From Candidatus Poribacteria bacterium (lineage in GTDB: Bacteria; Poribacteria; WGA-4E; PCPOR2b), in assembly GCA_963665285.1 (NCBI GenBank), contig OY762266.1, forward strand, positions 1,536,001 to 1,600,000: DNA of 64,000 bases, given 5' to 3'. Of this stretch, positions 46,994 through 62,233 are shown in pieces. Position 1 is the first letter of the stretch; every line of letters begins with the position of its first letter. The notes under the pieces are model-generated. The model was not told the DNA's origin. It ran no database searches and saw only the letters and a program-made list of their open reading frames with translations. The position numbers and the translations under genes were made by a program.

Positions 46994-48058
46994 TTAGGGG
47001 AGGGAGTTGACCCCTATCAGATTGTTTCTGTCCATAACCTGCGGAGATTGTCTCTCAACGAAGGGCTCGATTGACCGATCTTCAATGATCCGACTGCCCT
47101 TGGATTCAAAGCGGAACGCCAACCGCGAAAGCCCCAAGTCAGAAAGTGCCGCCGTTACAGCCCCCTGTTTCGCTTTGGGGACATAAAACAGAAAGTATCC
47201 GCCTCCCCCTGCTCCTAGAATCTTGCCGCCTAGCGCACCCGCAGCGACAGCACACTTATAGATCCTATCCAACATCGGATTTGAAATGCTATCACAGAGG
47301 GAGCGTTTCAGCTGCCAACCGCGATGTAATAGATGTCCAACCTCGTCTAGGCAACCATCGTGGTTGCCCTTTACAAGGACATCGTAAAACGCAGGTACAA
47401 GCTCCTTGATTTGTAGTAGCGTCTGGGGACTTGCAGAACGTTTCTGTTCGTGCAAGATGGTCTCGGCGCGTCGTTGAATCCCCGTGTAGAATAGGGTGAG
47501 ATTCTCTTCCAAATGGGTTATAGTCTTGGGGGTTACTGGGATGTCCTGCGTATCGACACTCTCGTCTTTGTCGAACCGAATGCGCTGCAACCCACCGTAA
47601 GCAGCGATATACTGATCCTGCTTCCCGATAGGCTGGTTCAGGCGTTCTATCTCAATTTCACACGCTTGCTGCGCGAGAGTTTCCGTTGACATCTCGATTC
47701 CTTGATAGGTGTAGAAGGCATTGAGAAGTCCGACGGTCAATGCGCTCGACGACCCCAACCCACAGCCGCGCGAGGGGATATCGGAAGTAACTGTGATAGA
47801 TACGCCGCCGGGCACGTTGGTTTTTCGCATTGCTTCCCGAATCAAAGGGTGCTGGATTTGGTCAGGGCTATAAACCGTTTCATGGTGGTCTGGGGTGTTG
47901 ATAGCAATTTGAGAGTTTCGCCGCCTTGTGATACGAACGGAGATGTATTTGTCAATAGCGGTACTGATGACCTCTCCCCCATATTGTCGATAAAAGTTGG
48001 CGATGTCGGTGCTGCCTCCTACCAAACTGATGCGTATTGGTGTGCGTGAAATAATCAT
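46994..48058 (-). CDS. GHMP sugar kinase, HddA-like (heptose-7-phosphate 1-kinase family)
   Basis: RTPIRISLVGGSTD, GLGSSS, IGKQDQY, GGKILGAGGGG. Confidence 0.85.
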   Translation of the reverse strand: MIISRTPIRISLVGGSTDIANFYRQYGGEVISTAIDKYISVRITRRRNSQIAINTPDHHETVYSPDQIQHPLIREAMRKTNVPGGVSITVTSDIPSRGCGLGSSSALTVGLLNAFYTYQGIEMSTETLAQQACEIEIERLNQPIGKQDQYIAAYGGLQRIRFDKDESVDTQDIPVTPKTITHLEENLTLFYTGIQRRAETILHEQKRSASPQTLLQIKELVPAFYDVLVKGNHDGCLDEVGHLLHRGWQLKRSLCDSISNPMLDRIYKCAVAAGALGGKILGAGGGGYFLFYVPKAKQGAVTAALSDLGLSRLAFRFESKGSRIIEDRSIEPFVERQSPQVMDRNNLIGVNSLP

Positions 48059-48067
48059 GAGTTCCTC

Positions 48068-48856
48068 CTATACCGGTTGGGGATCTGATTGATGCGCTTT
48101 CCCGCTCGGTGGCTTTTGGAAATAAACACCGTGGCTGTCAACGGTTTTGAAGACAACACCCTCGATTTGATGTTCCTTGAGATACTCCGTTATCGCTTGC
48201 CGACAACCTTGCCAGGTCCAATAATCATCCAAAACAATAAATCCTCCGTCAACCACCTTGTCATACAGTTCCTCAAGAACCACTTTGACTGACTCATACC
48301 AATCGGCATCAATATGCAGGAGAGCGATGGTTTTGATAGGTTCGGCTCTCAAGGTTGAATCAAACCACCCTGCGATTATTCTGACAGGCTCCAACGAGAG
48401 ATGAAGTTGATTGAAAATCTTTGTCACCTTTTCAACCCTTCCGCAACACCAACCCTCAAAATAGGCGTCTTGGGCGCGTTCACCGTCCTTACTGCCCGGT
48501 GTAGGTAGTCCAGCAAAAGAATCAAAGAGCCAAAAAGTTCTCAAGGGGTTTCCATCACCTCGACATGCCGCACCCATAATTGCGGCGGATCCGCCATTCC
48601 ATACCCCACACTCCACTATATCTCCGGGGAGATCGGTTGCATTCACCCGTTGGACTAATTCATAGAGGTTAATGAGTCGTTTCACTGAAACCATCGTATA
48701 TTGGGGCTTCACCCGTAACAGCAATCGAGCCAAATAAAATGACCTTTTTGAAGGTTGACGGATGAGCCAGAGCAGAATGTCAGCCAACGCCTTTGTCAAA
48801 AACAGTATGCGACCAATGAGAAAATCGGGCGATCGAAGTTTAATAAGATTTATCAT
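48068..48856 (-). CDS. TylF/MycF/NovP-family sugar O-methyltransferase
   Basis: GDIVECGVWNGGS, FDSFAGLP, GWFDSTL, LHIDADWYES, LDDY. Confidence 0.9.
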   Translation of the reverse strand: MINLIKLRSPDFLIGRILFLTKALADILLWLIRQPSKRSFYLARLLLRVKPQYTMVSVKRLINLYELVQRVNATDLPGDIVECGVWNGGSAAIMGAACRGDGNPLRTFWLFDSFAGLPTPGSKDGERAQDAYFEGWCCGRVEKVTKIFNQLHLSLEPVRIIAGWFDSTLRAEPIKTIALLHIDADWYESVKVVLEELYDKVVDGGFIVLDDYWTWQGCRQAITEYLKEHQIEGVVFKTVDSHGVYFQKPPSGKAHQSDPQPV

Positions 48857-48861
48857 GACGA

Positions 48862-49869
48862 CTAGCGTGATAGGGGGAAAATTAATTCACGGCAAAACCC
48901 GATAGACCACCCTGTGACAGCAAGAACAATTACCAATGGAACACAAAGCGTGGCTGAAAACGACTTCGTCTGCAAAAATGCAAAAGTGCAGATTAGCAGT
49001 AACCCCACCATAATCAATCCGAGAAAAATGAGAGCAAGATTTAGATTAATCAAAAAGGAGAGACTGAAACAAATGATGGAAAGTGGAACACTCAGACCAA
49101 CCGCAATGTGAACCACGCTAAGGAGCGAGTGCCACTTCTTACCTAACTGTAAGCGCATGATAGCATATCGATACATCTGTCGAAAAAATCCCCGTGGCGT
49201 TTCCCGTTTGTAATGCCAAACCTTGACATCCGGCGTCGAAAGAAGCGAAAAGCCTCGTTGTCTCAGAAGATAATTCAGTTCAACATCCGCCCCGCCTAAT
49301 AGGTTTCCTGCCAACGGCATGACAGCGTTTAACGCTGCTTTCCGATAAATGGCGTTACAGGTCGGGAAATCTTTCACGACTTCTACCGTCCGCTGTGTCT
49401 CTTTGTGACTCGATTTGCCCAAAGTCACAGCGATGGAGAATAGAAAAGCGACTGCTTTGGCGAACGCGCTCTGCTGGGGAGGGAGATGAATCGGTCCGGT
49501 GAGACCGGCGACTTGTGGATCAGCCTCGAAATACTTGACGCTGTTTTGGATCCAGTTTTGGTCAACAATACAATCTGCATCTGCGTAAGCGACCAATTCC
49601 CCTTTTGCACACTTAAACCCACGGTTGACGCCCGTTCGGTGCGACTTTTTGGGATTGTCCACCATGGTGAGGTCGTAGGACGCTGCAATTTCCCGTGTAT
49701 TATCGGTTGAAAGTCCATCAACGATCAGAATCTCCATCCGTTCTTTGGGGTAGTTGAGGTTCTTGAGACTGTCGAGACAGTCCCTCAAGGTCCGCTGGGC
49801 ATTCCAAGCGGGGATGACTATAGAAATAAAGGGGAATTGAGTCTTATTGTTCATCTTTGGTAAACTCAA
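48862..49869 (-). CDS. GT2 glycosyltransferase with C-terminal TM helices
   Basis: ISIVIPAWN, VDGLSTDNT, YADAD, ADVEL, FFRQMYRY. Confidence 0.9.
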   Translation of the reverse strand: MSLPKMNNKTQFPFISIVIPAWNAQRTLRDCLDSLKNLNYPKERMEILIVDGLSTDNTREIAASYDLTMVDNPKKSHRTGVNRGFKCAKGELVAYADADCIVDQNWIQNSVKYFEADPQVAGLTGPIHLPPQQSAFAKAVAFLFSIAVTLGKSSHKETQRTVEVVKDFPTCNAIYRKAALNAVMPLAGNLLGGADVELNYLLRQRGFSLLSTPDVKVWHYKRETPRGFFRQMYRYAIMRLQLGKKWHSLLSVVHIAVGLSVPLSIICFSLSFLINLNLALIFLGLIMVGLLLICTFAFLQTKSFSATLCVPLVIVLAVTGWSIGFCRELIFPLSR

Positions 49870-61512: not shown

Positions 61513-61560
61513 TTGAGATCTCCTTTGATTGGAAGTTTTGCAACTAAGGTCGCATGAAGA

Positions 61561-61593
61561 TTGGAGTGCGAAAACAAGATTTTCGCACTCCAA
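61561..61593 (-). other. Intergenic stem-loop after the lead gene of cassette A
   Basis: Perfect 14-bp arms TTGGAGTGCGAAAA / TTTTCGCACTCCAA with a 5-nt loop. Confidence 0.7.
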
Positions 61594-61672
61594 AGGAACC
61601 AGTGAATTGTTGAGAGACCCAGATCTTAACGAACCCTCTCTTTAGCAGTTGTGAATCTGACAGCCACAATTT

Positions 61673-62233
61673 TTAATCACATAATGGGACTGTATATATA
61701 TCCCGATCATGCGGGTCAATGTTTTTATGACAAGGCGGGCTAATAGTCAAGTTCGTATAGGCATTCACATCATATTTACAGTTATTGACTCCTGATGTCA
61801 GGTTCCAAGTTCCCCACAACGTGTTCGAGTGACTAAAACTGTCAAACGGCTGAACTGTCTGAACATACTGTCCTGACCCTGGAACTCTGACCTCACCACC
61901 GCCTACATTCTGACAACCCCATGGGTTACCGCCAAATTGTGTTTTGTCAACATCCAACGAGTAGTGCCAGCCTATTCCTTGCGCAACGTTTTTCTTGCTG
62001 ATAACGGAAATTTCATGGGAAGATTCCGCTCGGTATGTACAACCATTATATTGGTAAAAGTCGGTCACTTCAGCCGATGTCTCCCAGTGGAAGCAGGCGT
62101 TTTCACCATCTTGTTCCGCAACATCCGCAAAAGCTGTGTATACAACAATGGTCAACATACAAGCACTGAGAATACTGGTCGCCATGGCACAAAGCCACCA
62201 AGAAGTTGAGCGTTGAGTCAATTGCGTAATCAT
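61673..62233 (-). CDS. Secreted Cys-containing hypothetical protein (186 aa), lead gene of cassette A
   Basis: AAAGGAGA RBS; signal peptide ending AFA; six Cys in the mature part; two N-L-T sequons. Confidence 0.7.
   Translation of the reverse strand: MITQLTQRSTSWWLCAMATSILSACMLTIVVYTAFADVAEQDGENACFHWETSAEVTDFYQYNGCTYRAESSHEISVISKKNVAQGIGWHYSLDVDKTQFGGNPWGCQNVGGGEVRVPGSGQYVQTVQPFDSFSHSNTLWGTWNLTSGVNNCKYDVNAYTNLTISPPCHKNIDPHDRDIYTVPLCD

Follow-up and report, generated by a model that had tools for sequence, protein, structure and literature searches.

The present analysis concerns a gene cluster at positions 46994 to 62233 of a 64,000-nucleotide (nt) stretch of DNA from a Candidatus Poribacteria bacterium (assembly GCA_963665285.1, contig OY762266.1, positions 1,536,001 to 1,600,000), which is called the window throughout. 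An earlier note, made from the sequence, had described two tandem cassettes in this cluster. Each cassette was said to encode a small secreted "lead" protein, a propeller protein, a protein with a single transmembrane segment (1-TM protein) and an STT3-like oligosaccharyltransferase (OST), followed by glycan genes, and each OST was proposed to be dedicated to its own lead protein. Related Poribacteria genomes are referred to below by G numbers and loci by L numbers. The features of the cluster, read along the minus strand, are given in the following list, in which ORF stands for open reading frame and GT2 for family-2 glycosyltransferase.

63524..64000, minus strand: 3' part of a UshA-like protein with a cytochrome c554 domain (PF13435, NCBIfam NF041198)
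62508..63545, minus strand: DUF1573 / OS_HP2-like Ig-fold protein with an N-terminal TM segment (PF07610, 129 bits)
62265..62292, minus strand: sigma-70-like promoter match before lead A, TTGTCC-16-TATAAT (10/12 positions; consensus match only)
61673..62233, minus strand: lead A, 186 amino acids (aa), orphan family
61561..61593, minus strand: hairpin A, between lead A and propeller A (15-bp stem, z -2.6)
60586..61512, minus strand: PD40 propeller A with signal peptide (likely start M28; ORF up to 61593)
60063..60581, minus strand: 1-TM protein A, 172 aa from M56 (ORF up to 60746), abutting the OST-A start
57280..60060, minus strand: OST-A, 926 aa, STT3/AglB family (PF02516, AF2 model, Foldseek)
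56279..57301, minus strand: flippase-like membrane protein of the MprF/LPG_synthase_TM family (PF03706, 103.7 bits; TIGR00374)
55093..56286, minus strand: GT2A, Dpm1/AglJ/ArnC-like, with C-terminal TM helices (likely start M25; ORF up to 56358)
54829..54844, minus strand: sigma-54-type promoter match before lead B, TGGCAC-N5-TTGC (consensus match only)
54116..54673, minus strand: lead B, 185 aa from an ATG behind a GGAG ribosome site (ORF up to 54736)
54054..54100, minus strand: hairpin B, between lead B and propeller B (13+7 bp, z -3.3)
53007..54008, minus strand: PD40 propeller B with signal peptide (likely start M36; ORF up to 54113)
52558..52941, minus strand: 1-TM protein B, 127 aa from M33 (ORF up to 53037), with a 20-nt overlap with the OST-B start
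49866..52577, minus strand: OST-B, 903 aa, STT3/AglB-family paralogue (PF02516, 49.3 bits)
48862..49869, minus strand: GT2B, membrane-anchored family-2 glycosyltransferase (PF00535, 93.5 bits)
48068..48856, minus strand: TylF-type O-methyltransferase (PF05711, 183.7 bits)
46994..48058, minus strand: GHMP sugar kinase, HddA/fucokinase-like, last gene of the unit (PF00288 and PF08544)

All 13 of the 13 genes of the two series were found in the ORF list and by the Pfam and NCBIfam scans, and the repeated gene order reported for the minus strand was thereby confirmed. Cassette A consists of lead A, the hairpin, the PD40 propeller, the 1-TM protein, OST-A, the PF03706 flippase-like protein and GT2A. 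Cassette B consists of lead B, the hairpin, the PD40 propeller, the 1-TM protein, OST-B, GT2B, the TylF-type methyltransferase and the GHMP kinase. The genes 3' of the hairpins abut or overlap, as described earlier, with gaps of -22 to about +65 nt that depend on the choice of start codon, and stable stem-loops do follow each lead gene. For hairpin B, none of 200 shuffled sequences folded as well, and neither hairpin is followed by a T tract. The two OSTs are 30% identical over their full length (E 3e-112) and the two propellers 33% identical (E 2e-41). In BLASTP comparisons similarity was undetectable between leads A and B and between 1-TM proteins A and B. Thus the repeat is architectural: by sequence, two of the four module genes, those for the OST and the propeller, are recognisable paralogues. 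The genes downstream of the GHMP kinase lie on the opposite strand, are convergent and are unrelated to the cluster. At the other end, the UshA-like/c554 gene extends past the window, and its full 456 aa are encoded at L041 525-1895.

Both large proteins are true members of the STT3 family, by sequence in both cases and by predicted fold in the case of OST-A, whose model supplied the fold evidence. The PF02516 (STT3, family GT66) hidden Markov model was matched at 53.4 bits by OST-A and 49.3 bits by OST-B against a cut-off of 24.5, only the N-terminal part of the model being matched, and a six-frame search of the bacterium's own genome with the same model gave 68.5 and 52 bits. A phmmer search of PDB sequences aligned two segments of OST-A with STT3A (E 2e-10), one over the DxD region and the other over the position of the WWDYG motif; GYADRD of OST-A falls on GSYDNE of STT3A and SWEHG on WWDYG. 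A profile of the family gave E values of 2.6e-21 for STT3A, 1.9e-20 for yeast STT3, 2.5e-4 for A. fulgidus AglB and 6e-3 for C. lari PglB. The sequence alignments with solved OSTs stop short of the C-terminal segment in which the DK or MI motif would lie. The AlphaFold (AF2) model of OST-A has a mean predicted local distance difference test score (pLDDT) of 76.9 and a predicted template modelling score (pTM) of 0.76. When this model was searched with Foldseek, ranks 1 to 19 were all STT3, AglB or PglB (E 1.5e-14 to 1.1e-9), including the PglB structures 5ogl, 6gxc and 3rce (E 1.7e-11 to 2.3e-10), and its C-terminal globular domain matched the soluble domains of AglB and PglB. Other enzymes of the glycosyltransferase C (GT-C) fold were far weaker matches, DPY19 at 7e-6, ArnT at 7.9e-4 and PMT at 3e-2. 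The STT3-like assignment of the earlier note therefore stood in both the profile and the structure searches.

The key residues were located in both proteins. In OST-A they are D43, D157-R-D159, E350 and S648-W-E-H-G652, and in OST-B D45, D157-R-D159, E342 and H-W-E-Y-G. D43, D157, D159 and E350 of OST-A are invariant in an alignment of 11 sequences, and D45, D157, D159 and E342 in OST-B numbering are invariant in 22 sequences. The DSARY, DRD and I.EL motifs, by which the OSTs had been called paralogues, are likewise invariant in the 11-sequence alignment and, with the end-to-end identity given above, bear that relationship out. We take the acidic residues to be the STT3 catalytic set, that is, the Asp of external loop 1, the DxD/DxE motif and the TIxE/SVSE-type Glu of external loop 5, and they would presumably have a catalytic role in OST-A and OST-B. 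Together, the PF02516 scores, the STT3A matches, the Foldseek ranks and these invariant residues argue against a non-STT3 GT-C fold, which the earlier note had named as one outcome that would undo its proposal. Membership in TIGR04154 (archaeo_STT3), the archaeosortase-associated archaeal STT3 family, was considered and rejected, since OST-A and OST-B scored 63.6 and 82.5 bits, far below the cut-off of 450.

The glycan genes were found to belong together, and the earlier claim that each cassette carries glycan genes of its own did not hold. In G006, G002 and G005, the genes that in the window follow OST-A and OST-B form one contiguous block of flippase-like, GT2A, GT2B, in part TylF, and kinase genes, with GT2B directly after GT2A, while module B separates GT2A from GT2B in the window and in G014. 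These arrangements indicate one donor set with a second OST module inserted, and a cassette-specific glycan was ruled out on these gene-order grounds. The donor genes and the OSTs may differ greatly in conservation: between the window and G014, GT2A is 95% identical and OST-A 39%. GT2A is 91-95% identical across the genus and the flippase-like protein 75-82% identical in relatives. A Dpm1-like GT2 gene, a PF03706 gene or both lie 3' of an OST in G014, G002, G162, G020 (L026, L027, L032, L033) and G021.

The functions of the donor genes are predictions from family membership. GT2A has TIGR04182 (AglJ) as its best NCBIfam match, at 167 bits against a cut-off of 325; its best PDB matches were the P. 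furiosus Dol-P-Man synthase 5mlz (2.8e-12), ArnC and GtrB, and its homologues show TM helices. The flippase-like protein is predicted to flip a lipid-linked sugar. GT2B, with PDB matches that include 6yv7 and 9jma, is predicted to add a second sugar. The TylF-type enzyme is predicted to methylate a sugar, and its gene is a variable accessory one that the G006 block lacks. A single metagenome contig, from run X17, spans 48083-48868 by a junction that would remove TylF; the flank is short (30 letters). The kinase had been called HddA-like, and this identity was not sustained: its NF049969 (HddA) score was 167.9 bits against a cut-off of 600, and it is described here as a GHMP sugar kinase only. 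In G005, a nucleotidyltransferase gene directly follows the kinase. In G020, the sugar genes associated with an OST are two GT4 genes. In G021 (L035 11236-16012, plus strand), the genes that come after the OST encode a GT2-GNAT fusion, an NAD epimerase/dehydratase, a DegT aminotransferase and a flippase-like PF03706 protein, and by sequence they look like a donor pathway for an acetylated amino sugar; donor chemistry would thus differ between paralogous loci. No RNA run was listed among the sequencing runs that contain the region. Summed depth over metagenome contigs from four runs that contain part of it was higher for the donor genes and propeller repeats than for the OSTs and leads, a measure unsuited to ranking the genes.

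The order lead, propeller, 1-TM protein and OST was found in five other Poribacteria genomes (G006, G017, G162, G014 and G002), so the conservation on which the earlier proposal depended was borne out. In G006, G017 and G162, the order is UshA-like/c554, DUF1573, lead A family, propeller, 1-TM protein and OST, with the DUF1573 protein 60-63% identical and in the same position and with homologues of 1-TM protein A directly before the OST. G014 has the two-cassette layout of the window, and G002 has related modules. In the latter, a third OST copy is split in two ORFs by an intervening ORF of 417 aa (L019 17528-18433, 18500-19753 and 19892-21517, plus strand), possibly a mobile-element insertion. 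The UshA-like/c554 gene lies upstream of OST modules in G006, G162, G002, G018 and G020, and a 99-aa N-terminal piece of it is present in G017. About 20 OST loci were read for their upstream neighbours, and every one had one or more small signal-anchored ORFs directly upstream. At distant paralogue loci these were other signal-anchored proteins, among them LamG-like proteins as well as small orphans. Another kind of OST locus was also seen, in which a C39 peptidase-DUF1573 fusion of 474-476 aa overlaps the OST start by 16-85 nt (L036 9937-11361, minus; L032 6739-8169, plus; L024 17181-18605, plus); upstream of these fusions come the UshA-like/c554 gene and the genes of two orphan secreted proteins.

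Neither 1-TM protein had a Pfam or NCBIfam match. The propellers matched PF07676 at 106 bits (A) and 168 bits (B), and their TIGR02800 (TolB) scores of 153.8 and 222.5 bits lie under the cut-off of 343.15. The TolB-like label given earlier was therefore set aside in favour of PD40 propellers. The window and G014 can be compared across module B, where OST-B is 92% identical, 1-TM protein B 83% and propeller B 47%. The spacing from 1-TM protein to OST is 3 nt in A, and the two genes overlap by 20 nt in B. A complex prediction for OST-B (residues 9-886) with 1-TM protein B (residues 1-122) scored 0.00, which counts neither way.

The lead proteins begin with an N-terminal hydrophobic helix. Lead A has a Cys-rich, beta-rich mature part and two NLT sites, and lead B, also from an orphan family, has one D-Q-N-S-S site. 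Lead A had no Pfam or NCBIfam match, and an ESM Atlas search with both leads gave no usable match. AF2 modelling of lead A from a 4-sequence alignment reached a pLDDT of 49.2, the usable part being the N-terminal helix and beta strands. Strong matches to the lead A family (E 5.5e-61 or better) occur in 4 of 176 genomes. The same four genomes, and no others, have the OST-A subtype, and each match lies about 1.6 kb upstream of an OST-A-subtype gene; weaker partial matches were found at three places. For lead B, homologues were found in G014 and, 1.7 kb upstream of an OST, in G045. Lead A is the fastest-evolving gene of its block. For example, between G006 and G017 the lead is 50% identical, the propeller 70%, the 1-TM protein 78%, the DUF1573 protein 86% and the OST 88%.

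The leads also carry expression signals of their own. Lead A has an AAAGGAG ribosome site before its ATG in addition to the sigma-70-like promoter match, and the TGGCAC-N5-TTGC match of lead B lies 155 nt upstream of its ATG. A comparable hairpin was found 3' of the lead gene in four of the five related cassettes that were folded, and none in cassette A of G014. An own promoter match, a strong ribosome site and a hairpin for each lead would fit the layout of abundantly made precursor or structural genes. A sigma-54 activator gene (PF00158, 203 bits) heads the cluster just past the window end (L041 2187-3200, minus strand), and similar activators precede modules in G014, G017 and G002. These sequence matches suggest sigma-54 control of OST modules.

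The family profile matched 118 of 176 Poribacteria genomes at E 1e-20, many of them several times, and 90 of the 133 genomes of good quality. Copies per genome range from two to more than ten, and the genome that contains the window has exactly two. Within the genus, 7 of the 19 other genomes gave a match at E 0.001, so that the distribution there is patchy. An exhaustive search recovered 440 cluster representatives at E 1e-30 and 3417 at 0.001; a word-based search had recovered only 24 relatives. The 9.1-Mb genome G020 has about ten OST loci (L026-L034) with different upstream secreted proteins at each, one of which, of 144 aa, has 7 N-X-S/T sites where 4.2 are expected from composition. Among 20 cluster representatives looked up, the one that bore an organism name, a hypothetical protein of a Woesearchaeota metagenome-assembled genome (MAG), aligned end to end with the OST family (25% identity, E 4e-68), with a literal WWDYG at the corresponding place and GYADKE aligned on GYADRD. 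From this end-to-end archaeal homologue and the multi-copy distribution across the phylum, the OST family appears to be a branch of archaeal-type AglB enzymes that was acquired by Poribacteria and amplified within the phylum, the transfer having presumably run from archaea to Poribacteria. Lombard 2016 (PMC4973528) places bacterial STT3 homologues among euryarchaeal sequences and proposes at least two archaea-to-bacteria STT3 transfers. In searches of the freely accessible literature, no paper on Poribacteria oligosaccharyltransferases and no description of the present architecture was found, in agreement with the earlier note, which had not recognised it as a described system.

The cluster is best explained, with a probability of about 0.55, as two STT3/AglB-type OST modules set in one operon for a lipid-linked sugar donor, forming an Agl-like N-glycosylation system for envelope proteins. 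The window is likely to encode one polyprenyl-monophosphate donor pathway that serves both modules and would be analogous to the euryarchaeal Agl route. The GHMP kinase, with a nucleotidyltransferase encoded elsewhere, would yield an activated sugar, which GT2A would load onto polyprenyl monophosphate at the cytoplasmic face. GT2B would extend the lipid-linked sugar and TylF would methylate it, the flippase-like protein of the MprF type would carry it across to the periplasmic side, and OST-A and OST-B would transfer the glycan to Asn of secreted or membrane-anchored proteins. The glycan is probably the same for both modules, which would differ in the acceptors that they prefer. The likeliest candidates for preferred clients or partners of the OSTs are the proteins encoded with them (lead, propeller and 1-TM protein), and this assignment is the weakest step of the model.

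Several observations weigh against this explanation. Glycosylation by OST-A and OST-B is itself a prediction. The position of WWDYG is kept in both enzymes, but the motif reads SWEHG in OST-A and HWEYG in OST-B, and only its W and G are invariant. The WWDYG motif reads the +2 Ser/Thr of the sequon, and Asp-to-Glu changes in it are not neutral in yeast Stt3. The acceptor rule is thus uncertain and may differ from the canonical one. Among 128 long relatives, a regular-expression search found a literal WWDYG in 19 and SWEYG in 10, with 69 unmatched by the expression. On the donor side, no nucleotidyltransferase was found in the window cluster by the Pfam scan, G017 has an OST module and no GT2A match at E 1e-30, and GT2A is split into two ORFs in G006. 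In addition, the specificities for sugar, lipid and mono- versus diphosphate are drawn from family resemblance below equivalog cut-offs.

The same holds for the leads as substrates. Homologues of lead A do not keep its NLT sites, nor do those of lead B keep its DQNSS site, and one lead A homologue (L015) is without any N-X-S/T. In G014, an in-frame TAA stands at codon 79 of the lead B orthologue (L046 about 1735-1971, minus strand), next to an intact OST-B. Homologous sequence continues behind the TAA, which could reflect a pseudogene or an assembly error. In 70 upstream signal or TM proteins of up to 350 aa, 109 N-X-S/T sites were counted against 94.5 expected from composition, a count reached in 59 of 1000 shuffles and thus not significant. 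Lead, 1-TM protein and OST subtypes do co-vary across loci, and the five genes of block A give an identical pairwise ranking among four genomes, but inheritance as a block explains the co-occurrence of lead and OST equally well. Of the dedication proposed earlier, then, the association stood, in that strong lead A matches are found only with the OST-A subtype (4 of 176 genomes), and the substrate relation did not gain support from the unconserved sequons or from the stop codon in G014 lead B. Strict dedication of each OST to its lead is accordingly judged improbable. The looser statement, that the module proteins are preferred clients of the OSTs, is a tentative possibility.

Four other explanations were weighed against the shared-donor reading. 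The proposal of two self-contained cassettes, in which each OST glycosylates only its own lead with a cassette-specific glycan to give interchangeable surface glycoproteins, would account for the strict company that lead A keeps with the OST-A subtype, the promoter match and hairpin of each lead, the rapid evolution of the leads, as is often seen in surface proteins, and the different genes that follow the two OSTs in the window. It is nevertheless very unlikely, since those different genes are one block in G006, G002 and G005, cassette B is without a lipid-loading GT2 or flippase of its own, the lead sequons are unconserved, lead B is interrupted in G014 beside an OST-B that is still 92% identical, and block inheritance predicts the same co-occurrence. 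A multi-subunit bacterial OST, in which the 1-TM protein and perhaps the propeller are non-catalytic subunits, the clients are many envelope proteins and the leads are not special, fits the abutting or overlapping 1-TM and OST genes, the presence of small signal-anchored ORFs upstream at every examined OST locus and the conservation of 1-TM protein B between the window and G014 (83%), which is closer to that of OST-B (92%) than to that of the propeller (47%). However, the 1-TM proteins show no similarity to known OST subunits and no family match, the upstream partners fall in many unrelated clusters across loci, and the known prokaryotic STT3 enzymes are single-subunit. This arrangement is considered rather unlikely.

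The STT3-like enzymes might also act on a non-protein or non-Asn acceptor, transferring a single sugar in the manner of ArnT, PMT or DPY19, with unrelated envelope proteins as neighbours. The trio of GT2, flippase-like protein and GT-C enzyme is the layout of ArnC/ArnT- and Gtr-type systems, the WWDYG motif is degenerate, and the G021 OST is followed by amino-sugar genes that resemble the Arn pathway. Fold and sequence are much nearer to STT3, AglB and PglB than to ArnT, PMT or DPY19, though, the modelled OST-A has the C-terminal globular domain typical of STT3, with matches to AglB and PglB soluble domains, and a literal WWDYG is kept in 19 of the 128 long relatives and in the archaeal homologue. 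This was the least probable of the explanations. An extended form of the shared-donor reading, a modular N-glycosylation system of archaeal derivation in which each of up to ten or more OSTs per genome would form a complex with its own 1-TM subunit and propeller, recognise a non-canonical site through xWExG, modify its own fast-evolving client and draw on a shared monophosphate-linked pool, is unlikely in that full form.

The shared-donor reading can be compared with known systems. In the euryarchaeal Agl pathway of Haloferax and Methanococcus, an AglJ/AglK-type Dpm1-like enzyme loads dolichyl monophosphate, and several OST paralogues per genome are known in some archaea too. Like archaeal AglB, the window OSTs are STT3-family proteins of about 900 aa with a long C-terminal domain and have an end-to-end homologue in the Woesearchaeota MAG. 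As in the Agl pathway, the cluster has a Dpm1-like lipid-loading GT2, a further GT2 and a methyltransferase, and the best NCBIfam matches are archaeo_STT3 for the OSTs and AglJ for GT2A. The differences are that the host is bacterial, that the scores lie under the equivalog cut-offs (64 and 82 against 450; 167 against 325), that the OSTs have xWE[HY]G instead of WWDYG and that the flippase candidate is of the MprF/PF03706 family. The module of lead, PD40 propeller and 1-TM protein is not known to have an archaeal counterpart.

Among bacteria, Campylobacterota and a few Desulfovibrio relatives are the only groups in which STT3-type N-glycosylation has been studied in depth. The window resembles the Campylobacter pgl locus in that a bacterial single-gene STT3 homologue is encoded with glycan-assembly genes. 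However, PglB is the most distant solved OST by sequence (6e-3, against 2.6e-21 for STT3A), the window donor is probably monophosphate-linked, and Poribacteria genomes have two to more than ten OST paralogues. A pgl-type locus was rejected as a description, because neither a PglC-type phosphoglycosyltransferase nor an ABC flippase (PglK) was among the Pfam matches of the 15 cluster proteins, which include a Dpm1-like GT2 and a PF03706 protein instead. The PglS-ComP system of Acinetobacter and the TfpO/PilO-PilA system of Pseudomonas have Wzy_C-type O-OSTs that are encoded beside a single pilin substrate and act on Ser/Thr. The logic proposed for the window in the earlier note would be like theirs, with a substrate gene beside a lipid-linked-glycan transferase, a variable substrate and a shared glycan pathway, but its enzymes are STT3-type, its leads are not pilins and dedication is only proposed. 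The layout of GT2, flippase and GT-C enzyme is also that of ArnC-flippase-ArnT, GtrA/GtrB/GtrC and Dpm1-PMT, and GT2A matches ArnC and GtrB structures, but the GT-C partner in the window is an STT3 protein. The further GT2 gene and the genes for the methyltransferase and the kinase point to a glycan of more than one sugar.

Elsewhere in the window, two adjacent WD40 propellers of 667 and 881 aa are encoded at 11988-13991 and 14029-16674 on the plus strand (PF00400, 309 and 380 bits), and a Ser/Thr protein kinase is encoded at 6974-8950. Chance matches to the sigma-54 pattern recur in the repeats of these WD40 proteins with a period of about 125-140 nt.

What is new is the phylum-wide expansion of the OSTs, the altered WWDYG motif and the module of lead, propeller, 1-TM protein and OST set inside a common donor operon. 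An STT3 branch of archaeal and eukaryote-like type is widespread and multiplied across a bacterial phylum, and it stands out for its altered sequon-reading motif, a donor pathway that looks to be of monophosphate type, as it is in Euryarchaeota, and the recurrent partner set of each enzyme. If active, the enzymes would be a new source of OSTs with different acceptor or donor rules for glycoengineering, and a further case of transfer of the N-glycosylation core from archaea to bacteria. The paired modules on one donor set offer a natural experiment on the evolution of acceptor specificity. Poribacteria are uncultured and partly sponge-associated, and an active system would provide a handle on their surface biology. 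Were the modular reading of one enzyme for one client true, the modules would be a bacterial means of diversifying surface glycoproteins.

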